From assembly GCA_016183245.1 (NCBI GenBank), contig JACPEY010000011.1, positions 5,568-69,567 on the forward strand: a stretch of DNA of 64,000 nt. Direction: 5' to 3'. How positions within the stretch are numbered: position 1 is the first letter of the stretch; every line of letters begins with the position of its first letter. This DNA comes from Candidatus Daviesbacteria bacterium (lineage in GTDB: Bacteria > Patescibacteriota > Microgenomatia > Daviesbacterales > UBA10151). Made by a program: the position numbers and the translations under genes. The notes under the pieces were generated by a model. It made no database searches and was not told the DNA's origin. It saw nothing but the letters and a program-made list of their open reading frames with translations. Below, in pieces: positions 2,744 to 63,833 of the stretch.

Positions 2744-2775
2744 GTCAATACAAATCCACCCCCCCCAGGTGGAAA
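2744..2775. repeat. REP-like palindromic element (CCACCCCCCCCAGGTGGA core), copy 1, intergenic.
   Basis: The sequence tgtcaatacaaatccaccccccccaggtgga shares the CCACC-Cn-AGGTGG core with 5 other copies in the window. Confidence 0.6.
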
Positions 2776-17729: not shown

Positions 17730-18869
17730 GTGATATTTATTAAAAAAGTTGAGAGTTTTGGAAATGCATATTTTGATCCTTTACAGGATGATGTGGAGAT
17801 TTCTGTAAGGACAGGAAAATTACACCCAAATGACCGGGAGAAGATTTCTGAGATGGTCAAATCAGCGAATAAGAAATTGTTTATTCCCCACTACTATGAA
17901 TGGATTTTTGATGGTAGCGTTAAGTTGGTAGGAGTAAAGCTATATACTCCATCTATTATTGCTTCTGCTTCCTTTCCTGTCATTGCGAGGAGCGAAGCGA
18001 CGCGGCAATCCTCAACGAATTGGGAAGATCGCCACGCTATCGCTCGCGATGACAAAAAGGTTTCTGCAGTCAAGGTGTTTTTTGATTTATCAGTAGGGCT
18101 TACAATTGAAAAAGAGATAGACGGGGTATACATAGCTTCTGAGAAAATATTTGACCTTAACAAACCCGGAGAATCATTTGAGAATCTAGTTTTTAGACTG
18201 GTGGAATCTGCCATTACTTTTCCCCGTTCCCTGATACTTTTTAAACTGGCGGATAAATCAGAAGGCCTGCCTGACGGCAAGGCAGGCATGGGTAAAGTGC
18301 GCGGCAGTTTGCGGTTGCTTCATCAGAAAAGTTTATTTGATCCTCTTTTGGAAGTTTTAGATTTTGCCCGTCACAAAAAAGGACTGACAAATATTCATAT
18401 AGTCATACCATATGTGCGGGGTGTAAATGAGCTTCTAAAAATAAAAAGAGAACTGGCTGTCCGGAAGCTCTCCAGAAAAAATTCATTAGGGCATTGGATG
18501 GAAATAGCTTTACCGGAAAATATTATTAATTTGGAAGATTATTTGATTGCAGGGATTGACGGGGTTGTTTTAAACCTTGATGAACTGATTTCCCACTTGA
18601 ACGGATTTGATATCAAAGAAGAAGAGCTGATATTTTATAAAAATGAGGCAGAGGGGTTAATGAAGTTTTTAGAAGACGGCATTAGGCTTTTACATAAATC
18701 AAAAGTTCCTTTTATAGCATCCGGTACTTCAACTTTTAATCAAAAAATGTTGGAGTTTTTAGTGGAGAAAGGGGTAACGGGGGTGGTGGTAGAAAAATAT
18801 GAAGCTCACTCTGCTAAGGATTTATTGCATCAGACAGAAAGAAGGATAGTTTTAAGAAGGGTGGAATAG
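17730..18869 (+). CDS. PEP-utilizing-enzyme-like protein (resembles the C-terminal TIM-barrel of PEP synthase/PPDK) carrying an in-frame palindromic insertion.
   Basis: The blocks NIHIVIPYVRGVNELLKIKREL and IAGIDGVVLNLDELI resemble the PEP-utilizing barrel. The 25-aa segment VIARSEATRQSSTNWEDRHAIARDD is encoded by a 75-bp palindromic element. Confidence 0.35.
   Translation: MIFIKKVESFGNAYFDPLQDDVEISVRTGKLHPNDREKISEMVKSANKKLFIPHYYEWIFDGSVKLVGVKLYTPSIIASASFPVIARSEATRQSSTNWEDRHAIARDDKKVSAVKVFFDLSVGLTIEKEIDGVYIASEKIFDLNKPGESFENLVFRLVESAITFPRSLILFKLADKSEGLPDGKAGMGKVRGSLRLLHQKSLFDPLLEVLDFARHKKGLTNIHIVIPYVRGVNELLKIKRELAVRKLSRKNSLGHWMEIALPENIINLEDYLIAGIDGVVLNLDELISHLNGFDIKEEELIFYKNEAEGLMKFLEDGIRLLHKSKVPFIASGTSTFNQKMLEFLVEKGVTGVVVEKYEAHSAKDLLHQTERRIVLRRVE
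17979..18053. repeat. MITE-like palindromic element (GTCATTGCGAG...CTCGCGATGAC termini), 75 bp, in frame inside a CDS.
   Basis: The termini gtcattgcgag and ctcgcgatgac form a perfect 11-bp terminal inverted repeat. The 75-bp length (a multiple of 3) preserves the reading frame. Confidence 0.6.
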
Positions 18870-19535
18870 TAAAATATATTCGCCTTTGGGATTTTTGAGA
18901 GTTTCCAGCCAACTTGAAACTGGTTTTGTTTCAACGCTTTGGTGGATTTTGGTCAGTTCATGAGCCAAAGTGATATTAATGTTTCCAAAAACTTCTTTAA
19001 TGCTTTCTATAATCCTGATTAATTTATGTGGAGCTGCAAACATTATATATGTCATCTCCCCGGGTGTCCTATCTGATTCACCCCCCAGGTGGATAAACTG
19101 AGAAAGGAATTTTTTTCTATGGCCGGGCTTTTCCGGCGGGTATCCTAAAAACATGAATTTATCAGGTGGCAGGCCGGATAAAGTAAGTGCTGTGATTGCT
19201 GATGACGGCCCTGGTAAGGAATCAACTTTAACTTCCTGTTGCAAGCACTCTCTGATTAGTTTATACCCGGGATCAGAAATTAAAGGGGTGCCGGCATCAG
19301 AAACCAGGGCCAAATTTTGGCCGTTTTTTAGACGATCGACAATAGTTTGTACACTTCGGGCTTCGTTATAGTCATTTAAAATAATTAGAGGTTTATGAAT
19401 GTTATAGTGGTTCAATAGCAGGGACGTTCTTCTGGTGTCTTCACAAATAATTCCATCAACTGACTCAAGAGTCTCTAGCGCTCTTAGGGTAATGTCTTTG
19501 AGATTGCCGATAGGAGTGGCGACAATATATAGCAT
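18852..19535 (-). CDS. rsmI: 16S rRNA (cytidine1402-2'-O)-methyltransferase RsmI (tetrapyrrole-methylase family) carrying an in-frame REP insertion.
   Basis: The family motifs LYIVATPIGNLKDITLRALETL and ICEDTRRT are present. The inserted peptide HLGGESDRTPGE is encoded by REP copy 2. Confidence 0.8.
   Translation of the reverse strand: MLYIVATPIGNLKDITLRALETLESVDGIICEDTRRTSLLLNHYNIHKPLIILNDYNEARSVQTIVDRLKNGQNLALVSDAGTPLISDPGYKLIRECLQQEVKVDSLPGPSSAITALTLSGLPPDKFMFLGYPPEKPGHRKKFLSQFIHLGGESDRTPGEMTYIMFAAPHKLIRIIESIKEVFGNINITLAHELTKIHQSVETKPVSSWLETLKNPKGEYILLFHPS
19057..19094. repeat. REP-like palindromic element, copy 2, inside the rsmI coding sequence.
   Basis: The sequence ccccgggtgtcctatctgattcaccccccaggtgga matches the family consensus. 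Confidence 0.6.
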
Positions 19536-19555: not shown

Positions 19556-20179
19556 TTATCTTTTAAATTTCTTAATAATACTTGCTCTAATTTCAGCATC
19601 AACTAAGATATGATGCAGTACCGGAAGGATTGAGGCAAAAATGATTAGTCCGATAATAGGAAGAAGGTATTTATCAACATCAGGGATCAGGCTTCCCAGG
19701 TAAAACCCCAAAATAGGGATAGCAATGGCCCAAAGAATTCCTCCAATAAGATTAAACATCACAAACTTTTTGTACTGCATCAAGCCAACTCCGGCAACCA
19801 CAGGTGCGAAAGCACGTATAACTGGAACAAATCTTGCTAAAATTATAGTTTTACTGCCGTGCTTCTCATAAAATTTTTGAGCTCTTTCAAGATGATTCTT
19901 ATGAAACCAAATTGATTTTTCCTTATTAAAAAGTTTTCGTCCAAATTTTTGTCCAATGTAATAACCTACACTATCCCCTAAAACAGCAAAAATAAAGCTG
20001 CCGGCAACTAAAAATTTTATATCCAATACACCTTGCGAGGCTAAAAATCCAGCTGTAAACAAAAGAGAATCACCCGGGAAGAAAAAGCCTATCATCATGC
20101 CTGATTCCAGGAAGACTATGGCAAAAACCCCGAAATAACTAAAAGTTTTAATTAAGGTTATCAAATCGATTGGAAGCAT
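19556..20179 (-). CDS. DedA/SNARE-associated-family membrane protein.
   Basis: The motif FLESGMMIGFFFPGDSLLFTAGFLA is typical of DedA. Confidence 0.8.
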   Translation of the reverse strand: MLPIDLITLIKTFSYFGVFAIVFLESGMMIGFFFPGDSLLFTAGFLASQGVLDIKFLVAGSFIFAVLGDSVGYYIGQKFGRKLFNKEKSIWFHKNHLERAQKFYEKHGSKTIILARFVPVIRAFAPVVAGVGLMQYKKFVMFNLIGGILWAIAIPILGFYLGSLIPDVDKYLLPIIGLIIFASILPVLHHILVDAEIRASIIKKFKR

Positions 20180-33656: not shown

Positions 33657-34427
33657 ATGAGTAAAACCAGATTAAAGATTCTTACGGCTGGATTTTTATT
33701 TATTGCATCAATTGTTTTTAGCATTTTTCTTTCTTCTACTGCCTTAGCTAATCATTCCTGGGGAGGTTACCATTGGGCCAGGACTGCAAATCCCTTTACT
33801 GTAAAACTAGGCAATAATGTTTCTTCTGTTTGGAATCCAATTCTTAGTACAACCTTCAATGATTGGAGTCAATCTACAGTTTTGGATACAACCATTGTCA
33901 ACGGTGGAACCAAAGCCCGCAATTGTCGGCCAACTCTAGGCCGTGTGGAAGTTTGCAATGCTAAGTATGGAAACAACGGCTGGTTGGGTATAGCCCAAAT
34001 TTGGGCCAGCGGGCTGCATATTGTGCAGGGAATCACCAAAGTCAATGATACTTATTTTAACACCGCGACTTATAACACGACTGCCTGGCGTAACCTGGTC
34101 ATGTGTCAGGAGGTAGGCCATACTTTGGGACTGGATCATCAGGATGAGAATTTTAATAATTCAAATATGGGCACCTGTATGGACTATACCAATAATCCTG
34201 ATTCAAACCAACATCCTAATCAACATGATTACGATGAGTTGGAGCTAATTTATTCTCATCTTGACTTAACTAACACCATCAGTCAAACACTTTTCCCGGT
34301 TCAAGGCAACCTTGATAACCCGACGGAGTGGGGGAAATTAGTTAAAAAACAGGGTCGTGTAGCAGTATTTGAAAGGAATTTTGGTTTGGGGAATAAATTG
34401 TTCACCTTCGTAATCTACGCCGACTAA
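33657..34427 (+). CDS. Secreted protein with a metzincin-like zinc-binding motif (putative metalloprotease).
   Basis: A signal peptide is present. QEVGHTLGLDH aligns to HExxHxxGxxH with Q at the first His position, so catalytic competence is uncertain. Confidence 0.35.
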   Translation: MSKTRLKILTAGFLFIASIVFSIFLSSTALANHSWGGYHWARTANPFTVKLGNNVSSVWNPILSTTFNDWSQSTVLDTTIVNGGTKARNCRPTLGRVEVCNAKYGNNGWLGIAQIWASGLHIVQGITKVNDTYFNTATYNTTAWRNLVMCQEVGHTLGLDHQDENFNNSNMGTCMDYTNNPDSNQHPNQHDYDELELIYSHLDLTNTISQTLFPVQGNLDNPTEWGKLVKKQGRVAVFERNFGLGNKLFTFVIYAD

Positions 34428-34514
34428 TCTTCGTCGACTTTCGGTTTACTCAGTTAATTTAGATATAAACTTTAACTTTCGTCTTTTGTTTGGAAAAGTG
34501 ATAAAATATGATTC

Positions 34515-36548
34515 ATGGCAAAATTTCAAATTGTTTCAGATTTCAAACCTACTGGGGACCAACCACAAGCCATTGAGAAGCTGGTTAACGGGATAAATAA
34601 AGGCAGACAGCACCAGGTTTTGCTTGGAGTAACAGGTAGTGGTAAGACTTTTACTATGGCTAATGTTATCCAGAAAGTGCAAAGGCCGACCCTGGTTATT
34701 TCCCATAATAAAACTTTAGCAGGACAACTGGCTCAGGAGTTTAGGTCTCTGTTTCCAAATAACGCTGTTGAGTATTTTGTTTCTTATTATGATTATTACC
34801 AGCCAGAAGCGTATATTCCCCAATCAGATACTTATATTGAAAAGGAAACCCAGATTAATGAGGAAATAGAAAAGTTAAGGCTGTCTGCAACTGCATCACT
34901 GCTTAGCAGAAAAGATGTGATAGTAGTAGCCTCAGTTTCTGCAATCTATAACTTAGGTTCTCCAATAGAGTATGGCCAGGCAATACTGGAAATCGGCCCG
35001 GGCATGAAAGCCGGTATGCAGCAGGTGATGAAGATTTTGCAGAAGATGTTTTATAAGCGCAATGATATTGATTTTAAAAGGGGGACATACCGGGTCAGGG
35101 GTGATACGGTTGATATTTTTCCTTCATATAAAGATCAAGGTTACAGGTTACAATTTTTAGGGGACAGACTGGAGAGTGTAAGCGAGTTGGAGGTTGTGAC
35201 AGGTAATGTTTTAAAAATGCAGGGAACGCAGACTATTTATCCTGCCAAGCATTACATTACTTCGGAACAAAGGATTGTGCCGGGAATTAAACAAATAGAA
35301 ATCGATTTAGAATCTAGAGTCAAGAGTCTAGAGTCAAGTGGAAAATTGATAGAAGTGCAGAGATTAGACCAAAGGACAAATTATGATTTGGAGATGATCC
35401 GGCAATTCGGGTACTGCAACGGAATTGAAAATTACTCCCGCTATTTTGACGGCCGGAACCCCGGGGACCCTCCATATACTTTGCTTCATTACTTTCCTCA
35501 AGACTTTTTGCTCGTTATTGATGAATCCCATATGACTATCCCTCAAATTCGGGGGATGTATAACGGGGACCGGTCAAGGAAGGAAACTTTAATAGATTTT
35601 GGGTTCAGGCTGCCTTCGGCTTTGGATAACAGGCCCTTAAAGTTTGATGAGTTTATGAGGATGATTAACCAGGCAGTTTATGTTTCAGCCACTCCGGATG
35701 AGTATGAATTATCCCTAGCGAATTCATCCCACCTGGGGGGTGGTCTAGATAGGACACCTAGGGGTACTGATGGGTTGTATAGCCATGATGGGATAGCGGA
35801 ACAATTGGTCAGGCCAACTGGGATTTTGGATCCGGAGGTTTCTGTAAGACCGATTAAAGGTCAAATTGAAGATTTATTAAGAGAAATAGAGACTAGAGTC
35901 AAGAGTCAGGAAAGGGTATTGATAACAACTTTAACCAAAAGAACAGCTGAAGATTTGGCAGATTATTTAAAGGAAAAAGGCATTAAGGTGCACTATCTGC
36001 ACTCTGATGTTAAAACTTTAGAAAGAGGGGATATTTTACAGGCTTTGAGGTTGGGGGAATATGATGTGATTGTGGGAATTAATTTACTTCGGGAAGGTCT
36101 GGATTTGCCGGAAGTTTCACTGGTGGCAATTTTAGATGCTGATAAGGAAGGGTTTTTAAGGTCCAGGACTTCTTTGATACAGACCATGGGCAGGGCTGCC
36201 AGGCATGTTAGAGGGCAGGTAATTATGTATGCCGACATTGTCACCAAATCCATGAAAGCAGCCATAGATGAGGTAAAAAGAAGGAGGAAATATCAGGCAG
36301 ATTACAATAAAAAACATAATATTACGCCGAGAAGCATAGAAAAAGCTTTACGGGAAAGGTTGATAGAGAAAGTAGAGGAGCTGGAAGAATCTTTGGGTAA
36401 AACAGATTTAACTGTTGATGATATTCCGGTAGAGGATCGGAAAAAAATGATTAAAAACCTGGAAGCCCAGATGAAACAGGCAGCAGAACTTTTAGACTTT
36501 GAAGAAGCTGCCAAAATTCGGGATCAGATTAAGGAGTTAAGTATTTAG
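34515..36548 (+). CDS. uvrB: Excinuclease ABC subunit B (UvrB) carrying an in-frame REP insertion.
   Basis: Walker A (GVTGSGKT), helicase motifs, the VRPTGILDP block and the C-terminal UVR motif (EEAAKIRDQI) are present. The region between YEL and QLVRPTG is about 20 aa longer than the E. coli UvrB sequence recalled from memory, and it contains HLGGGLDRTPRGT. Confidence 0.9.
   Translation: MAKFQIVSDFKPTGDQPQAIEKLVNGINKGRQHQVLLGVTGSGKTFTMANVIQKVQRPTLVISHNKTLAGQLAQEFRSLFPNNAVEYFVSYYDYYQPEAYIPQSDTYIEKETQINEEIEKLRLSATASLLSRKDVIVVASVSAIYNLGSPIEYGQAILEIGPGMKAGMQQVMKILQKMFYKRNDIDFKRGTYRVRGDTVDIFPSYKDQGYRLQFLGDRLESVSELEVVTGNVLKMQGTQTIYPAKHYITSEQRIVPGIKQIEIDLESRVKSLESSGKLIEVQRLDQRTNYDLEMIRQFGYCNGIENYSRYFDGRNPGDPPYTLLHYFPQDFLLVIDESHMTIPQIRGMYNGDRSRKETLIDFGFRLPSALDNRPLKFDEFMRMINQAVYVSATPDEYELSLANSSHLGGGLDRTPRGTDGLYSHDGIAEQLVRPTGILDPEVSVRPIKGQIEDLLREIETRVKSQERVLITTLTKRTAEDLADYLKEKGIKVHYLHSDVKTLERGDILQALRLGEYDVIVGINLLREGLDLPEVSLVAILDADKEGFLRSRTSLIQTMGRAARHVRGQVIMYADIVTKSMKAAIDEVKRRRKYQADYNKKHNITPRSIEKALRERLIEKVEELEESLGKTDLTVDDIPVEDRKKMIKNLEAQMKQAAELLDFEEAAKIRDQIKELSI
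35727..35764. repeat. REP-like palindromic element, copy 3 (reverse orientation), inside the uvrB coding sequence.
   Basis: The sequence tcccacctggggggtggtctagataggacacctagggg matches the family consensus in reverse. Confidence 0.65.
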
Positions 36549-36562
36549 ACTGTAAACTAAGA

Positions 36563-37507
36563 TTATTTCTTAACTGTAAAACTATTATCTGAGTCGTCTT
36601 CAAAAGTTCGGCCTTGACTATCAGTACAGGTAATAGAAATTTTCATTTTATCCTCAGAGAGGGCAGCGTCAATTCTGGTTGTCCAGAAGATAGATTTCCA
36701 GCTTGCGTATGCTACCTCGTTACTGATTTTATTTATACTATTACTGGAATCCTTAGCATAAACAGAACAATTACCAGGAGAATTTGTATCCCACTTGATG
36801 TTTATGCCTGAGCCAGCTATAAAAGTTTCTCCTCCATTTGGATAAATGATTTTAATAAAGGGCGTGCCGCTGATTGATGTAACTATTTTAGTATCACCTG
36901 TTCCTTTTATAGGATTATAAACGGCGATTTTTATGGGAAATTTTTTCTGGACTCCTCTGGAATTTTGGATAATTCCGGTTCCGCTGTATTCTTTTGAGTA
37001 AACTTCTGAATTTACTTTAACGCTAATCTCTTGACTGCCGCCTTTGGCAAGGTTGCCTCCAGTTGTGGACCACTCAATTCCAGCAGCTGACTCAATAGGA
37101 TTACCTACTAAAATGTAGCTTTCATCTCGAGTAGCTTGGATAGTAAATACCTTCATTGATCTATCTGCTTCAACTAAAATGTCTACCCCATCAGTGCCAT
37201 TTGGATTGCTGATAAAATCCAGCTTAAAACCTAAATCATCTGAGGCAGACGGTCTGGATGTTGGACTTAATTGAGGAGTGGGGTTTGTTTTTAAACTAAT
37301 AGATTGTTTGGGTCGCGGACTGATACTTGGTGAGGGTTGGGACGTTTGTTGGGCGCTTTCTTGTGTTTTAGTAGTAGGTTGCGAAGCTGGTTGATACTGC
37401 TTAGATTGTTGCTGGTAAATTAAATATCCGGTTAAGCTGGCTGCAATTAAGAGTATAATAAATATTGGAGCTATGCCTTTGTTATTCATTAAATTGAGTA
37501 TACTCAA
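36563..37507 (-). CDS. Hypothetical membrane-anchored extracellular protein with a Pro/Ser/Thr-rich linker.
   Basis: An N-terminal TM is followed by a PST-rich region and a beta-rich C-terminus. Confidence 0.4.
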   Translation of the reverse strand: MSILNLMNNKGIAPIFIILLIAASLTGYLIYQQQSKQYQPASQPTTKTQESAQQTSQPSPSISPRPKQSISLKTNPTPQLSPTSRPSASDDLGFKLDFISNPNGTDGVDILVEADRSMKVFTIQATRDESYILVGNPIESAAGIEWSTTGGNLAKGGSQEISVKVNSEVYSKEYSGTGIIQNSRGVQKKFPIKIAVYNPIKGTGDTKIVTSISGTPFIKIIYPNGGETFIAGSGINIKWDTNSPGNCSVYAKDSSNSINKISNEVAYASWKSIFWTTRIDAALSEDKMKISITCTDSQGRTFEDDSDNSFTVKK

Positions 37508-37536
37508 TTATTGTATAGAGATACAAGGAGTTAAGT

Positions 37537-37767
37537 ATGAATATAAATGTTACTGATCAGGATCTATTGAATTGGGGGTTGGTATTAATTTCAGTGTCAC
37601 TGGCGATGGGTTTAGGGGCATCGGCATTTGTGAGCATCTCAGATAAGAAATTAACACTAAATTCTTGGTTGGCTAAACTGATTCTGCTGTTATTAACAGC
37701 GATAGTAGTTTCGGTAGCTGGGATCCTAATCTTTTGGATTTATTCATTAATTAAGTTTGGATTTTGA
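37537..37767 (+). CDS. Small two-TM membrane protein.
   Basis: Two hydrophobic segments are present. Confidence 0.3.
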   Translation: MNINVTDQDLLNWGLVLISVSLAMGLGASAFVSISDKKLTLNSWLAKLILLLLTAIVVSVAGILIFWIYSLIKFGF

Positions 37768-37803
37768 AGAAGTAGCAAGACTAATATCATAAAAGAACTA
37801 ATC

Positions 37804-37840
37804 TTCCACCTGGGGGGTGGGCTAGGTAGGACACCTAGGG
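37804..37840. repeat. REP-like palindromic element, copy 4, at the 3' flank of the RAYT.
   Basis: The sequence tccacctggggggtgggctaggtaggacacctaggg matches the family consensus. Confidence 0.65.
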
Positions 37841-37862
37841 AAATTAGATAATTTCAAGTTTA

Positions 37863-38612
37863 CTATTCCTGTACGAGATGTTGAATTTTATGAAGTTGTC
37901 TTTGATAATCGGCATGGTCTTCGATAAATTTTTGATAAACCTTAGGATTTATGAAAAGGCTCATTATTATATCTAAATTACAAATCTCAGCCTTATTACT
38001 TAGATATTCAGAGAGGGATGACCAGGGATATGCAAATAAGGTATTTAGATCCTTTACGACGTAGGAGGTATAGGGATTGAGATGAATGTATCTTGAAATG
38101 TGTATTAACTGTTCATCAGTTATGATTAGTTTAGCTTTAAATTGATCTAAGAAGAGTGATCCATCGCGTTCTCTTTTAGTATTAGAATATCTAGTGTAGC
38201 TATTTTGAAAATTCCCCAAAAATTTAGAAATTCCCTTATCTTTAATTTGTTTTATTAAAAAATGGAAATGATTTGGCATTAAACAAAAAGCCAGAATTTC
38301 TACAAGCTTATCATCTTCTTTCCTCAAATTATCCATAATTTTTGTCCGGTCATCATTTGAAAGTGTTAGAAATTTTGATAATTTAGCGGGAAGATTGCTG
38401 AATCTATAGAAGTCGATTACAAGCCTTGCTCTTTTGTATTCCAGTTTATCTAAGAAAGTTGGTTGATGATTTATCCCACGGTTAAAAACATGATAAATTT
38501 GGTCATTAACTAAAGGTGTTAATCTACCCGGCATATTTCTTAGAATAACCCTGATATCCCTAGGTGTCAATAGAAATCCACCCCCCAGGTGGACTATACT
38601 ATTCAGATTCAA
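37863..38612 (-). CDS. REP-associated tyrosine transposase (RAYT; IS200/IS605-like Y1 HUH transposase).
   Basis: The N-terminal block YHVFNRGINHQPTF, the HUH motif NHFHFLI and the catalytic-Tyr block RYIHLNPY are present. The first ~17 codons (HLGGGFLLTPRD) are REP-encoded, so the real start may be the internal Met at ~38534. Confidence 0.75.
   Translation of the reverse strand: MNLNSIVHLGGGFLLTPRDIRVILRNMPGRLTPLVNDQIYHVFNRGINHQPTFLDKLEYKRARLVIDFYRFSNLPAKLSKFLTLSNDDRTKIMDNLRKEDDKLVEILAFCLMPNHFHFLIKQIKDKGISKFLGNFQNSYTRYSNTKRERDGSLFLDQFKAKLIITDEQLIHISRYIHLNPYTSYVVKDLNTLFAYPWSSLSEYLSNKAEICNLDIIMSLFINPKVYQKFIEDHADYQRQLHKIQHLVQE
38558..38594. repeat. REP-like palindromic element, copy 5, at the 5' end of the RAYT.
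   Basis: The sequence ccctaggtgtcaatagaaatccaccccccaggtgga matches the family consensus. Confidence 0.65.
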
Positions 38613-39294
38613 TACTGCCGGAGCCTTCCTGTTCTTTGTTGACTTGTGGGGGTTCTTCTCTTAGAAAATATTGAATTGTTGGATCATCTTCTTCCCATTT
38701 TTTTATTTTTTCGCGGGCTTCAGTGTTTAAATCGCGTCCTGCAACGGGGATTATTTCCTTTCCCAATCTGTTTAGGATTCCTAATACTTTAGGATCAGCA
38801 ATAGTTTCTCCTGTAACCGGATCCAAGTCTTCATAACTAACCGCAATTTCATCAAATGGGAGTTCTAATGCTCCTTGTAAAGGTATACTGGAAAAATGGC
38901 CTGTCTCCTTCCTTAATTTTTGTGCTTCCTCAATTGACAAAGTTCCTCTTGCTACCCCTAAAGGAATATAAGGATTTGAGGGTTTTTCTTCCTCATTAAG
39001 AGTCCCTCCCTGTAAAGTAATTTCCTGATAGGTTTTAAAGTCAAGTGCCATATACTTAGTATAATTTATTTGATCACGCTCTGCTACTTCACTCTTTAAT
39101 AATCTTGCAAAATGGGGTAAAATAATAGTTTGATTTTTCGAAGAAAAATAGTCCCACGGTTTATTTTTCGGGGAAAATATGGCTATAGACAAAATTACTA
39201 TTAAAGGTGCTAGAGAACATAATTTAAAAAATATTGACCTGGAAATTCCTAAGAACAAGTTAGTGGTTTTAACCGGGATCTCCGGTTCAGGCAA
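38599..39294 (-). CDS. Hypothetical protein with an uncertain start (the annotated 5' end overlaps the uvrA start).
   Basis: The ORF overlaps the first ~115 nt of uvrA on the opposite strand. An internal Met near 39054 is the more plausible start. Confidence 0.3.
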   Translation of the reverse strand: MPEPEIPVKTTNLFLGISRSIFFKLCSLAPLIVILSIAIFSPKNKPWDYFSSKNQTIILPHFARLLKSEVAERDQINYTKYMALDFKTYQEITLQGGTLNEEEKPSNPYIPLGVARGTLSIEEAQKLRKETGHFSSIPLQGALELPFDEIAVSYEDLDPVTGETIADPKVLGILNRLGKEIIPVAGRDLNTEAREKIKKWEEDDPTIQYFLREEPPQVNKEQEGSGSIESE

Positions 39295-42265
39295 GTCTTC
39301 CCTGGCTTTTGATACCCTTTATGCCGAAGGTCAAAGAAGGTATGTAGAATCTTTATCTTCCTATGCCCGGCAGTTTTTGGGAGTCATGGATAAGCCTGAT
39401 GTAGATTTGATTGAAGGTCTTTCTCCTGCGATTTCTATTGACCAAAAAGGTGTCTCACACAATCCTCGCTCTACAGTTGGAACCACCACGGAAATTTACG
39501 ATTATTTAAGGCTTTTATTTGCCCGGGTTGGCCATCCTCATTGTCCTGTATGCGGTAGGGAAGTTGCCAAGATGAGCGTAGAGCAAATTACTCAACTTGT
39601 CATTCTGGGGAGAAGCGGAGCGACGACTCCAGAATCTATTACTAAGGATTCTGGACAAGCCAGAATGACAAAAAGGGGCAGGAGAATAATGATTTTGGCG
39701 CCGGTGGTTAAAGACAGGAAAGGCGAGTACAGCCAGTTATTTGAAGATTTCAGGAAAAAAGGGTTTTCTAAAGTCAGGGTTGGCGGATATATAATAGACC
39801 TGGCTGATGATTTGGTATTAATTAAAACAAATAAGCATACGATTGATCTGGTTGTAGATAGGCTTGTTTTAGATAAGAGTGTCATTCTGGGAGTCCCGAC
39901 GAAGTCGCGGACGACACCAGAATCAACGAATCAGTTAGATTCTGGACGCGCCCCTTCAGGGCCTGCCAGAATGACAAAAGAAAGTAAAGATAGTACTCAA
40001 GCAGACAATATTTACTCAAGATTGTCACAAAGCATTGAGACAGCGCTTAAATTTGGTGAGGGATCAGTGATAGTTTCTGATGTGCTGGATGCTTCTTTGG
40101 AATTCCCTCAAAATCCTAAAAAAATGGAGGACCATCTTTACTCGGAAAGATTTGCCTGTCCTGTAGACAATATCTCGCTGAGCGAGATTGAACCCAGACT
40201 TTTGTCTTTTAACTCTCCTCACGGAGCCTGTCCAAAATGTTCAGGATTAGGGAATCTTTTAGAAATTGATGCAGCTACAATTTTAAATCCAATTCTCTCT
40301 ATAGCAGAGGGCGGAATTCTGCCTATGTCAAAGCTTGCCACAAGTGATACCTGGTATACAAGGCTTATTGAAGCAGTGGGTAAAAAATATGGCTTTGATA
40401 CAAATACAAGGCTGGGGAATCTGACAGCTGAAGCCAAAAAGATATTGCTTTATGGTGGCGCAGATGAAGAATTTAAAGTAGAAGGCAGGAACAGACAGGG
40501 GAAGTGGACTCATTTTTATTCTGAATTTGCCGGGCTGGTGCCTTATCTTAAGGAAAGATATACAACAACTGAGTCGGATTTTGTTAAGGCCGAAATTGAA
40601 AAATATATGGTCAAAGAAACCTGTCCGAAGTGTAAAGGAGCAAGACTTAAAGATGAAGCACTTTCAATAACTATAGATGGATTAAACATTGCAGAAGTTA
40701 CCAGCCAGTCAATTGTTCAGGCTTTGGACTGGATCAAAAGAATTTCCGCTCGTAATGATGGGAAGGTATTAAGTGAGCGTGAGGCACAGATAGCAAGTCC
40801 TATTTTAAAAGAAATTAATGCCAGGTTGCAGTTTTTGATTGATGTGGGATTGGATTATCTGACTTTAGACAGGGCTGCCATGACTCTGGCGGGAGGAGAA
40901 TCACAAAGGATCAGGCTTGCTTCCCAGATCGGTTCAGGGCTTTCCGGAGTATTGTATGTTTTAGACGAGCCTTCAATAGGGTTGCATCAAAGGGATAATA
41001 CCAGGTTGATTGAAACTTTAAAAAAACTCAGGAATCTGGGTAATACTGTGATTGTTAATGAACATGATGCTGAAACAATGGAGGCATCGGATCTTCTGAT
41101 CGAAATTGGTCCGGGAGCCGGTGAACACGGCGGGCAGATTGTAGCTATAGGAACGCCTGATGAAATTAAGAAAAATCCCGCATCGACAACCGGCCAGTAT
41201 TTATCCGGAAATAAAAAAGTCGGAGCAAATATTCTTCAAGCACAGCGAGAATCTTCCTTAAAAACTATTAATAAATATGTGCTTAAAATTTTGGGTGCTT
41301 CTGAACATAACTTAAAAAATATTGACGTTTCTTTCCCCCTGGGAAAATTTATAGTAATTACAGGTGTTTCCGGTTCAGGTAAATCAACTTTAATTCATGA
41401 TATTTTATTTAAAGCTCTAGCCCAAAAAGTTTACCGCTCCAGGGAAAAACCCGGGCTGCATAGGGGCCTGGAAGGAACAGAGAATATAGATAAGGTAGTA
41501 TTGGTAGACCAGTCGCCTATTGGCCGCACTCCCCGTTCAAATCCGGCTACATATACCGGGGCATTTACCCACATCCGGGAGCTGTTTGCCCAAAGCCCGG
41601 AAGCAAAAATCAGAGGCTATAACCCGGGCAGATTTTCCTTTAATGTCAAAGGAGGAAGGTGTGAAGTTTGTGAGGGAGAGGGTACTTTAAAGATTGAGAT
41701 GCAGTTTTTACCGGATGTGTATGTAAGTTGTGAGTCATGTAACGGAGCAAGGTATAACAGGGAAGCTTTGGAAATCTATTTTAAGGAGAAAAATATTGCC
41801 CAGGTTCTGGATATGACGGTTGAAACTGCTTTAAAGTTTTTTGAAAATATTCCTCAGGTTAAAAACAAGCTGCAGGTTTTATTTGATGTGGGGTTGGGGT
41901 ACATTAAGCTGGGACAGCCTGCACCTACTCTTTCAGGAGGAGAAGCCCAAAGGATTAAACTTTCTTCAGAATTATCAAAACGTTCTACAGGACAAACAGT
42001 ATATATTCTTGATGAACCTACAACAGGCTTGCATTTTGCCGATATCGAAAGACTTCTAATGATCCTGAGGAAGTTAGTTAATGTGGGGAATACAGTAATA
42101 ATAATAGAACATAACCTGGATGTGATAAAAAATACTGACTGGGTAATAGATTTAGGCCCTGAAGGCGGAGACAAGGGGGGGAAAATTGTCGCCCAAGGTA
42201 CTCCTGTCCAAATTGCCAAAATTAAAGATTCTTACACCGGCATGTATCTTGCAAAAATACTTTAA
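39179..42265 (+). CDS. uvrA: Excinuclease ABC subunit A (UvrA) carrying two in-frame palindromic-element insertions.
   Basis: Two ABC modules are present, each with Walker A GxSGSGKS (GISGSGKSSL, GVSGSGKSTL), signature LSGGE and Zn-finger CxxC pairs. At 1028 aa it is longer than the ~940 aa typical of UvrA. The extra segments are ...TTPESITKDSGQARMTKRG... and ...TTPESTNQLDSGRAPSGPARMTKES... Confidence 0.9.
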   Translation: MAIDKITIKGAREHNLKNIDLEIPKNKLVVLTGISGSGKSSLAFDTLYAEGQRRYVESLSSYARQFLGVMDKPDVDLIEGLSPAISIDQKGVSHNPRSTVGTTTEIYDYLRLLFARVGHPHCPVCGREVAKMSVEQITQLVILGRSGATTPESITKDSGQARMTKRGRRIMILAPVVKDRKGEYSQLFEDFRKKGFSKVRVGGYIIDLADDLVLIKTNKHTIDLVVDRLVLDKSVILGVPTKSRTTPESTNQLDSGRAPSGPARMTKESKDSTQADNIYSRLSQSIETALKFGEGSVIVSDVLDASLEFPQNPKKMEDHLYSERFACPVDNISLSEIEPRLLSFNSPHGACPKCSGLGNLLEIDAATILNPILSIAEGGILPMSKLATSDTWYTRLIEAVGKKYGFDTNTRLGNLTAEAKKILLYGGADEEFKVEGRNRQGKWTHFYSEFAGLVPYLKERYTTTESDFVKAEIEKYMVKETCPKCKGARLKDEALSITIDGLNIAEVTSQSIVQALDWIKRISARNDGKVLSEREAQIASPILKEINARLQFLIDVGLDYLTLDRAAMTLAGGESQRIRLASQIGSGLSGVLYVLDEPSIGLHQRDNTRLIETLKKLRNLGNTVIVNEHDAETMEASDLLIEIGPGAGEHGGQIVAIGTPDEIKKNPASTTGQYLSGNKKVGANILQAQRESSLKTINKYVLKILGASEHNLKNIDVSFPLGKFIVITGVSGSGKSTLIHDILFKALAQKVYRSREKPGLHRGLEGTENIDKVVLVDQSPIGRTPRSNPATYTGAFTHIRELFAQSPEAKIRGYNPGRFSFNVKGGRCEVCEGEGTLKIEMQFLPDVYVSCESCNGARYNREALEIYFKEKNIAQVLDMTVETALKFFENIPQVKNKLQVLFDVGLGYIKLGQPAPTLSGGEAQRIKLSSELSKRSTGQTVYILDEPTTGLHFADIERLLMILRKLVNVGNTVIIIEHNLDVIKNTDWVIDLGPEGGDKGGKIVAQGTPVQIAKIKDSYTGMYLAKIL
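39599..39669. repeat. MITE-like palindromic element (GTCATTCTGG...CCAGAATGAC termini), copy A, inside uvrA.
   Basis: A 10-bp perfect terminal inverted repeat and an internal palindrome ccagaatc...gattctgg are present. Confidence 0.6.
39881..39975. repeat. MITE-like palindromic element (GTCATTCTGG...CCAGAATGAC termini), copy B, inside uvrA.
   Basis: It has the same 10-bp terminal inverted repeat as copy A and is about 95 bp long. Confidence 0.6.
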
Positions 42266-62792: not shown

Positions 62793-63803
62793 ATGAAAAT
62801 TGGTTATATCGGTCTTGGCAGGATGGGGAAGAATATGGTCCTCAACCTTTTGGAAAAAGGGATTGAGGTGGTGGCATATAACCGGTCCCCTGAGCCCAGG
62901 GAAGAGCTGCAAAAAGAAGCCAGCCAGTTAAAAAGCGGATCAGAGAATTTAAAGGTAGCAGATAATCTGGGAGAGTTGGTGACAGAGTTAAGGAATAATA
63001 AAGAAGATCCTGGACAAGCCAGGATGACAGAAGGGGAGGACGGAATTGTGATCTGGTTAATGATCTCTGCCGGTGCAGCCATTGACGCTGTTTTGGAGGA
63101 ATTAAGCGATAAATTAACTTCCGGAGATCTGGTAATTGATGGCGGAAATTCCCTTTATACAGATACTTTAAGGCGGGGTAAGATGCTTTCCCAAAAAGGA
63201 ATCCATTACATGGATGCCGGCACTTCCGGCGGAATTGAGGGAGCAAGGAATGGGGCTTGTATCATGGCAGGCGGTTCTGAGGAGGATTTTAAGAAAGTGG
63301 AGCCTGTATTAAAAGCTGCTGCACAACCGGGCGCTTATGCTTATCTGGGTCCTCTGGGTGCAGGTCACTTTGCCAAAACAATTCATAACGGAATTGAGTA
63401 TGGCATGATGCAGGCAATCGGGGAAGGTGCGGCAATTTTGAAAAATTCCGGGTTTCCTTATGATTTGCGGGAAGTTTTCCGTATTTACAATACCGGCTCA
63501 ATTATTGAATCAAGGCTGGTGGGATGGACTTTGGCAGAACTTAAAAATGACCCTGAACTTGCCAATATTACCTCTGTTATCGGTTCAGGAGGTGGTGCAG
63601 GTAAAACAAAAGGAGAAGCTCACTGGACAGTGGAACTGGCTAAAAAATTAGGGGTAGGTGTGCCGGTTATAGAAGCATCGGTAGCAGTCCGGGACAACTC
63701 TGATCAGGATAAGGAAGATTCTCCCAATGGTTTCCGTAATAAAATAGTTGCTGCCATGCGCTGGCAATTCGGCAGACATCCGGTTAAGAAACAAATTCCC
63801 TAG
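62793..63803 (+). CDS. gnd: 6-phosphogluconate dehydrogenase (decarboxylating), short YqeC/Gnd-like form. It carries a probable partial palindromic-element insertion, and its stop codon is supplied by a REP.
   Basis: NAD-binding IGYIGLGRMGKNM and the catalytic blocks GTSGGIEGARNG and KTIHNGIEYGMMQAIGEG are present. The extra segment NNKEDPGQARMTEGEDG at 63001-63030 resembles the right end of the uvrA elements. The TAG stop lies inside REP copy 6. Confidence 0.8.
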   Translation: MKIGYIGLGRMGKNMVLNLLEKGIEVVAYNRSPEPREELQKEASQLKSGSENLKVADNLGELVTELRNNKEDPGQARMTEGEDGIVIWLMISAGAAIDAVLEELSDKLTSGDLVIDGGNSLYTDTLRRGKMLSQKGIHYMDAGTSGGIEGARNGACIMAGGSEEDFKKVEPVLKAAAQPGAYAYLGPLGAGHFAKTIHNGIEYGMMQAIGEGAAILKNSGFPYDLREVFRIYNTGSIIESRLVGWTLAELKNDPELANITSVIGSGGGAGKTKGEAHWTVELAKKLGVGVPVIEASVAVRDNSDQDKEDSPNGFRNKIVAAMRWQFGRHPVKKQIP

Positions 63804-63833
63804 GTGTTCTATCTAGACCACCCCCCAGGTGGA
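63798..63833. repeat. REP-like palindromic element, copy 6, overlapping the gnd stop codon.
   Basis: The sequence ccctaggtgttctatctagaccaccccccaggtgga matches the family consensus. Confidence 0.65.

Follow-up and report, generated by a model that had tools for sequence, protein, structure and literature searches.

Repetitive extragenic palindromic (REP) sequences of the GTAG superfamily, which are associated with REP-associated tyrosine transposases (RAYTs), and of the CGTC type have been described lying in frame inside open reading frames (ORFs) of many bacteria (Di Nocera, De Gregorio & Rocco 2013, BMC Genomics 14:522; PMC3733652). These intragenic REPs encode 7-30 amino acids and are strikingly common in DNA-repair genes, including those for the excinuclease ABC subunits A, B, and C, with uvrA occupied in Opitutus and Thioalkalivibrio and both uvrB and uvrC in R. 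conorii. They occupy functionally related genes at different sites, save for recB in two Xanthomonas species. The CGTC-type repeats have no known dedicated transposase, and two of the Rickettsia palindromic elements (RPEs), RPE-4 and RPE-6, correspond to this type (PMC3733652). Here we describe a REP copy inside the uvrB gene of a Candidatus Daviesbacteria bacterium, a member of the candidate phyla radiation (CPR; Patescibacteria), found in a 64,000-nucleotide (nt) stretch of contig JACPEY010000011.1 (assembly GCA_016183245.1, positions 5,568 to 69,567) that we refer to as the window. We think it probable that this is a selfish, RAYT-linked hairpin element that entered a permissive interdomain loop, was retained in frame, and is translated as a disordered loop, with families of such elements still turning over at the site.

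The window REP resembles those compiled in PMC3733652 in lying wholly within the ORF of a known protein, in frame, and in a gene for nucleotide excision repair, and a further likeness is that the end of another window copy supplies a TAG stop codon. The CGTC-1 class of that compilation encodes peptides that are also found in some UvrB inserts of other Daviesbacteria (SVIPANAGIQ...DSRLRGND). It differs in its CPR host, in lacking a terminal GTAG, and in being a weak palindrome; a RAYT-linked REP in uvrB is not in that list, and here a single linker is occupied in 39% of orthologs. An earlier note on this DNA had called a RAYT-linked REP that inserts in frame unusual, a judgment that is overstated, since GTAG and CGTC REPs in ORFs were already listed in PMC3733652, with uvr genes prominent among them. 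In-frame REP insertion in uvr genes is therefore known; what appears to be new is the CPR setting, the single-site hot spot, and the scale of turnover. Conservation at the level of DNA and not of peptide, and the residence of RAYT genes in the uvr cluster, also appear to be new. A search of a literature library found no publication linking CPR bacteria to REPs or miniature inverted-repeat transposable elements in coding genes.

We liken the element to the RPEs by behavior, not by sequence. In the secondary accounts of PMC10969869 and PMC3733652, RPEs are elements of ~150 bp that encode a conserved peptide and are classically known for inserting in frame (Ogata et al. 2000, Science 290:347; 2002, Genome Res 12:808). 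As far as those accounts describe them, they share with the Daviesbacteria elements the character of selfish palindromic repeats in frame in conserved genes, a small reduced genome, a host protein presumed functional, and sites presumed to be fold-tolerant. The window element differs in its size of ~36 nt and in its link to a RAYT-like gene flanked by further copies, and it shows no evident resemblance to the RPE-type peptides tabulated in PMC3733652. Membership in the RPE sequence family (RPE-1 to RPE-10) is implausible because ~36 nt is far from ~150 bp and because the host is different. RPE-like behavior is now seen in the CPR, another group of small, gene-dense genomes.

REPIN-RAYT systems, which Bertels and Rainey are said to have described in 2011, reportedly consist in their classical form of extragenic REP doublets. 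Like them, the window has inverted copies of a dispersed repeat on either side of a Y1 transposase gene, and a hairpin conserved over long divergence. Unlike REPINs, the window family consists of singlets with two of six copies inside genes, and its transposase falls below the NCBIfam RAYT cut-off. Members of the IS200/IS605 family such as IS608 and ISDra2 move by single-strand "peel-and-paste" transposition. An HUH/Y1-type transposase with weak profile matches to ISDra2 TnpA and TnpA-REP, hairpin ends, the fact that no target-site duplication was seen, and the plausibility of precise loss all recall that family; unlike its members, the REP element has no transposase of its own, and activity, target sequence, and excision are presumed here.

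uvrB is a conserved repair gene that is not in general essential. The window protein has 100% identity with a Candidatus Daviesbacteria protein that NCBI names UvrB and contains the full domain set in Pfam (ResIII, UvrB_inter, Helicase_C, UvrB, and UVR). It matches the solved UvrB structure 2FDC with E = 7e-252, query residues 3-400 aligning to residues 4-402 and query residues 425-675 to residues 405-654; the alignments to 2FDC and 9GY7 are full length, the insert excepted, and UvrB structures rank first in a fold search with a model of the window protein. The Pfam domains and the 2FDC alignment continue around the insert, in agreement with the claim of the earlier note that the frame is kept on both sides and the downstream helicase and UVR motifs are intact.

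That note had placed a REP between the conserved YEL and QLVRPTG blocks and had estimated about 20 extra residues. We located the REP core there, within an intact ORF (Table 1), and the spacing between the 2 blocks is 30 residues in the window, 10 in the common Daviesbacteria short form (SLAGKDGIAE), and 8 in B. caldotenax. The insert consists of 22 codons that stand in place of two, usually GK, which lengthens the gene by a net 60 nt and the protein by 20 amino acids. The linker reads YELSLA-NSSHLGGGLDRTPRGTDGLYSH-DGIAEQLVRPTG, where the short form in orthologs is typically YELSLA-GK-DGIAEQLVRPTG, and an example of a junction peptide predicted for insert-bearing UvrB is GTDGLYSHDGIAEQLVR. The REP core comprises a first hairpin, CCACC-TGGGG-GGTGG, and a second unit, CTAGAT-AGGAC-ACCTAG(GG), and inspection of the sequence shows that it uses its sole stop-free forward frame. 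Derivation from the REP can be demonstrated for only about 12 of the 22 inserted codons (HLGGGLDRTPRG). The proposal that the extra peptide was read from a palindromic REP is right about derivation from the repeat and overstated otherwise, as the REP makes up no more than ~36 of the 66 inserted nt and the palindrome is poor. In its 3' tail (GATGGG-ttgt-ATAGC), the insert is similar to the native codons that follow it, and a local duplication of the DGIA codons may have produced the 3' part. Two ideas, that this tail arose from an 11-nt duplication (GATGGG..ATAGC) and that the S-L-A codons mimic a TTAGCT-like target, were weighed and not established.

Table 1. Coordinates of the uvrB insert, the REP copies, the transposase gene, and other repeat-bearing features of the window
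Feature	Coordinates	Strand	Remarks
uvrB coding sequence	34515..36548	+	677 aa, intact; from the ORF list
In-frame insert in uvrB	35721..35786	+	66 nt, residues 403-424, NSSHLGGGLDRTPRGTDGLYSH; from protein and codon alignments against empty and occupied orthologs
REP core in uvrB	35729..35764	+	CCACCTGGGGGGTGGTCTAGATAGGACACCTAGGG(G), encodes HLGGGLDRTPRG
RAYT-like Y1 (HUH) transposase gene	37863..38531	-	222 aa from MPGR; 1.3 kb downstream of uvrB
REP copy 3' of the RAYT-like gene	37806..37840	+	22 nt past the stop codon; orientation opposite to that of the 5' copy
REP copy 5' of the RAYT-like gene	38557..38597	-	25 nt upstream of the start codon (ATG)
REP copy in the rsmI-like gene (18852..19535, -)	19058..19092	-	same frame as the uvrB copy, encodes HLGGESDRTPGE
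REP copy at the 3' end of the gnd-like ORF 62793..63803	63798..63832	-	CCCTAGG end provides the TAG stop codon
Degenerate REP copy	2758..2772	-	hairpin only; intergenic
uvrA	39179..42265		1028 aa
First palindromic insert in uvrA	39599-39679		in frame
Second palindromic insert in uvrA	39878-39988		in frame
Half-unit of the uvrA-type repeat in the gnd-like ORF	63000-63041		DPGQARMTEG
PEP-utilising-enzyme-like ORF	17730..18869
Palindrome in the PEP-utilising-enzyme-like ORF	17976-18059		in frame

The 15-mer hairpin core of the element, CCACCTGGGGGGTGG, occurs six times in the 64 kb with at most 2 mismatches, against 0.05 copies expected. The uvrB copy has 97% identity with the copy at the end of the gnd-like ORF and 94% with the copy 3' of the RAYT-like gene, and when the six copies are aligned with their flanks, similarity ends at a unit of ~36 nt. 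This unit is a weak palindrome of two 5-6 bp hairpins, of which the CCACC/GGTGG hairpin is invariant among copies. Folding of the uvrB copy is no better than that of shuffled sequences (z = +0.67 as DNA, +0.53 as RNA), while the two-hairpin fold of the copy 3' of the RAYT-like gene reaches z = -2.95. All six copies lack the terminal GTAG that marks the GTAG REP superfamily; an internal GTAG is present only in the copy 3' of the RAYT-like gene, and the others have ATAG or none. No REPIN-type inverted doublets were seen among the window copies. Two of the six copies, in uvrB and rsmI, are predicted to be translated within genes, and the rsmI-like (TP_methylase) protein, when aligned with 5 orthologs, has 10-12 extra residues at the REP, which are missing in the genomes that carry loci L002 and L168.

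The RAYT-like gene downstream of uvrB is bracketed by inverted REP copies lying 22-25 nt from both of its ends, an arrangement characteristic of RAYT genes, which bears out the earlier note's view that the repeat is RAYT-linked. Its product exceeds the Pfam Y1_Tnp cut-off (35 bits against 23) and matches the NCBIfam family REP_Tyr_transpos with E = 1.7e-13 and 50.7 bits, below the cut-off of 80. The HUH (NHFHF) and YIHLNP motifs are invariant in five homologues, and a profile of these five sequences gives weak matches to TnpA-REP 4ER8 and ISDra2 TnpA (E ~0.05); a phmmer search of the protein against the PDB gave no relevant match. The mechanical ORF of this gene runs to 38612 through the upstream REP and would encode a 249-aa protein starting ...HLGGGFLLTPRD; the extension, 38532-38612, is probably non-coding because orthologs start at MPGR.

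Orthologs show that the uvrB linker is a recurrent insertion site. The ortholog set comprised the 120 closest UvrBs, 73-100% identical to the window protein and mostly labelled Daviesbacteria or unlabelled, and five Daviesbacteria-like uvrB loci (L088-L092) were added from among the matches listed in genome and metagenome scans. A short linker is present in 73 of the 120 proteins, which are 656-657 aa long, and the REP is absent from the DNA of the 10 empty linker sites examined. The remaining 47 (39%) have 4-51 extra residues at exactly the linker position occupied in the window, and in every one of these the frame is kept and there are no stop codons. By inspection, the inserts fall into ~10 clearly different sequence types, among them HLGGG..DRTPR (the window type), xPG[VL]S...TG hairpins, HLRG...HLGG doublets, CPSHLPG...HLEGEC, SVILNEAK..., and SVIPANAGIQ...DSRLRGND. 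By comparison, just 11 sequences have inserts at three other internal UvrB sites, and these also look hairpin-encoded.

The ortholog alignment that the earlier note had proposed as a check delimits the insert: orthologs without the REP also lack the residues, and the sole ortholog with window-like residues, P0002 (locus L002, GCA_016183265.1), has the same REP DNA in uvrB. L002 comes from an independently assembled genome that has retained the REP insert, and it carries a second REP copy near uvrB. Between the window and L002, uvrB outside the insert is 84% identical in amino acids and 43% identical at 4-fold sites. Such a difference between the 2 measures indicates that this long-diverged gene has been under strong purifying selection after the insertion, and the earlier note's opinion that the protein tolerates the insert and is not a pseudogene agrees with it.

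On a rough neighbor-joining tree of the 120 orthologs, occupied and empty states are interspersed, and parsimony requires at least 31 gain or loss events from an empty root. In all seven occupied alleles compared as DNA, the insert begins right after the Ala codon of S-L-A. The inserts match dispersed repeats of their own genomes. The L003 uvrB hairpin, a 50-nt element, has a copy of 94% identity in L003 uvrC at 19830-19879, and the hairpin motifs of L085 and L086 uvrB recur inside uvrA; inverted doublets are present in the uvrB inserts of other genomes, e.g., L086 and L003. The hairpin motif CACC[TC]N1-7[AG]GGTG occurs 27 times in the 7 occupied loci, 16 of these within uvrA, uvrB, or uvrC, and is missing from 6 of the 7 empty loci. 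A Y1_Tnp gene lies in the uvrB-uvrA-uvrC cluster, within 10 kb of uvrB, in 5 of the 7 occupied-linker loci and in none of the 7 empty ones (one-sided Fisher p = 0.0105, 14 loci). This comparison drew on the 64-kb window and on loci of 20 kb.

Some further details of these loci can be recorded. The RAYT-like genes resident in the uvr cluster are at 16662-17309 in L003, 12087-12761 in L085, 15798-16448 in L086, 12482-13168 in L087, and in the window as tabulated; they represent two lineages, 43-46% and ~35% identical to the window RAYT, in two or three positions, and several loci have lexA just upstream of uvrB. The secondary UvrB sites follow residue 327 (P0021, P0034, P0048, P0111, and P0118), residue 487 (P0017, P0075, and P0110), and residue 166 (P0078), with short, hairpin-like peptides such as PASPAGGP, DPPVGRAGK, and TCLPAGRPA. 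In uvrC, the region near SYGVNLTHPxGG is another hairpin-encoded insert site common to L003, L084, and L086. The uvrB match of L090 (9595-9743) shifts frame between residues 52 and 64, which may stem from a sequencing error, or else from a frameshift or a small insertion.

The insert has the last helix of helicase domain 1a on one side and the first strand of domain 3 on the other (2FDC residues 402/405). An AlphaFold2 model, built from 65 close orthologs and used for the local disorder call only, has a helix at 396-403, coil with pLDDT <50 at 405-423, and a strand at 427-430, and on this basis the insert loop is predicted to be disordered. Overall, the model has a mean pLDDT of 67.7, with a TM of ~0.55 and an rmsd of ~18 Å to solved UvrB. 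As a background for linker length, we took 139 diverse, unrelated bacterial UvrBs from among the matches listed in the genome and metagenome scans. Counted from Y[EQ], the linker is 9-10 residues long in 134 of these 139, so its length is normally rigid. Another UvrB with an insert at the domain 1a-3 linker, of 62 low-complexity residues, is that of an unrelated bacterium on metagenome contig JAABUT010015289.1 (L108), the only such case in the 139 distant UvrBs among the matches listed.

Conservation of the insert is seen in its DNA more than in its peptide. Between the window and L002, the whole insert is identical at 11 of 22 residues and 48 of 66 nt. The REP core, however, is identical at 31 of 35 nt and its hairpin at 15 of 15, against 17 of 31 for the insert outside the core, and all six comparable 4-fold sites of the insert are identical, against 43% in the rest of uvrB. 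Other occupied alleles show changes in step on both arms of a stem: the L003 and L084 inserts form hairpins of 12-13 bp, between which there are two compensatory double changes, and L085 and L087 differ by a compensatory stem change (CCTCCGAGG/CCTCGGAGG versus CCTCCCAGG/CCTGGGAGG). The uvrB hairpins of L003, L084, L085, and L086 are very stable (z -3.1 to -5.2). Judged by these sequence comparisons, the REP core in uvrB would be either constrained at the DNA level or homogenized with the other copies of its genome.

We propose that a copy of this RAYT-associated REP became fixed in the codons of the short UvrB loop that links helicase domain 1a with domain 3. The REP would be a single-strand hairpin element, presumably mobilized by the neighboring Y1 transposase acting on single-stranded DNA, and the uvrB copy would have survived because it presented its sole stop-free forward frame, had a frame-keeping length, and landed in a loop tolerant of extra residues. 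The insert would then be translated as a disordered excursion of ~20 aa, presumably at the protein surface, while UvrB stays under purifying selection. More widely, the Daviesbacteria linker would be the chief permissive site at which several families of palindromic repeats land, with a few UvrA, UvrC, and RsmI loops serving likewise, and its occupancy would turn over through repeated gain, loss, or replacement. Most likely the insert is neutral or slightly deleterious selfish DNA and not an adaptation of UvrB. Several points weigh against this account. The REP matches just 36 of the 66 inserted nt, and the 8-nt 5' and 22-nt 3' parts are not accounted for. The RAYT association is based on 14 hand-chosen loci that are phylogenetically non-independent. 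We infer both the translation of the insert and the activity of the RAYT, and likewise the surface exposure of the loop because the AlphaFold2 model is mediocre. Finally, a purely neutral relic would not show such conservation of the REP core; since the core is conserved far above the neutral level and stems change in a compensatory manner, something more is needed, be it concerted evolution, re-insertion, or a role of the DNA or RNA.

The main rival, which we regard as possible if unlikely, is that the uvrB linker and loops in uvrA and uvrC hold a preferred RAYT target and that insertion and excision there are precise, as in IS200/IS605 peel-and-paste, with no target duplication or footprint. 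The hot spot would then come from transposase specificity together with local RAYT action and not only from selection for a permissive loop. The common starting point of the seven sequenced alleles after the Ala codon would follow naturally, as would the many gains and losses from an empty root, although the tree is a rough neighbor-joining tree and the sample is small. This explanation also draws on the way each insert follows its own genome's repeat variant with compensatory stem changes, on the persistence of the REP core at saturated synonymous divergence, and on the presence of uvr-cluster RAYT genes from two lineages, in 2-3 positions, in 5 of the 7 occupied loci and none of the 7 empty ones, 6 of the latter also lacking the hairpin motif. 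Yet the codons at the site vary among genomes, so that a conserved DNA target is not evident, the rsmI copy of the REP has a different 5' flank, and the linker site also serves CGTC-type repeats, which have no known dedicated transposase. The fuller claim that the domain 1a-3 linker and a few UvrA and UvrC loops are specific, reversible docking sites for RAYT-mobilized hairpins, with the RAYT resident in a LexA-adjacent uvr cluster, seems to us quite unlikely.

A host-selected role for the hairpin is very unlikely in our estimation. Such a role could lie in the DNA or RNA, as a translational pause between the RecA-like domains, a determinant of mRNA stability, or a protein-binding site, or in a loop that modulates UvrB. 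The insert does sit exactly at a domain boundary, its hairpin is conserved at the DNA level between the window and L002, and the stable hairpins of L003, L084, L085, and L086 with their compensatory changes are what such a role would leave behind. However, 73 of the 120 orthologs do without any insert and the inserted sequences are mutually unrelated, the window insert is not significantly structured (z +0.5), and its peptide is poorly conserved at 11 of 22 residues. Intergenic REP copies are equally hairpin-conserved, as a comparison of the second L002 copy with the copy 5' of the window RAYT shows, and concerted evolution of the repeat family accounts for the pattern without any host function. 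It is scarcely credible that the insert goes untranslated, whether removed from the transcript, bypassed by ribosomes as in phage T4 gene 60 and the mitochondrial "byp" elements, lying in a pseudogene, or introduced by faulty assembly at a repeat. Repeats can indeed misassemble in metagenome-assembled genomes, but a homologous insert is present in the independent assembly of L002, and an artefact was rejected on this ground. Bypass and splicing impose no frame constraint, so the maintenance of frame without stops in 47 of 47 occupied orthologs counts against both, as does the use of the sole open forward frame by the REP in uvrB and rsmI; bypass was rejected accordingly. No Rfam family, introns included, matches 34000-40500, and with nothing credible in that scan an intron was rejected as well, while the strong purifying selection on uvrB and its intact frame led us to reject a pseudogene. 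An ancestral, lineage-specific loop as the origin of the insert was likewise weighed and rejected.

The uvrB linker is a ready comparative data set for target choice, precise loss, and concerted evolution in REP/RAYT systems, and it marks a loop where UvrB tolerates up to ~50 extra residues. Inserts of this kind inflate apparent protein divergence and can mislead the annotation and alignment of CPR proteins. If docking at a preferred target were true, the locus would be a natural system that displays REP insertion and precise excision in the alignment of one conserved gene. It might also couple REP-RAYT activity with nucleotide excision repair or the SOS response, and such a coupling, if true, would explain the enrichment of REPs in nucleotide-excision-repair genes of other phyla.

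Inserts are found in several conserved genes of the window: uvrB, rsmI, uvrA (twice), and the gnd-like dehydrogenase gene, with a probable one in the gene for a phosphoenolpyruvate (PEP)-utilising enzyme. The two in-frame palindromic inserts of uvrA belong to a family other than the uvrB REP, with the DNA GTCATTCTGG...CCAGAATGAC read as VILGRSGATTPES...ARMTKRG. UvrA is 963-981 aa long in most relatives and 1014 and 1029 aa in two others, to be compared with the length in Table 1. It has its own shared insertion sites among the compared loci, and the site of the second window insert is shared with other repeat types in L084 and L085. A half-unit of the uvrA-type repeat is present in the gnd-like ORF, and the in-frame palindrome of the PEP-utilising-enzyme-like ORF, GTCATTGCGAGGAGCGAAGCG...CGCTCGCGATGAC, is read as VIARSEATRQSS...RHAIARDDK.

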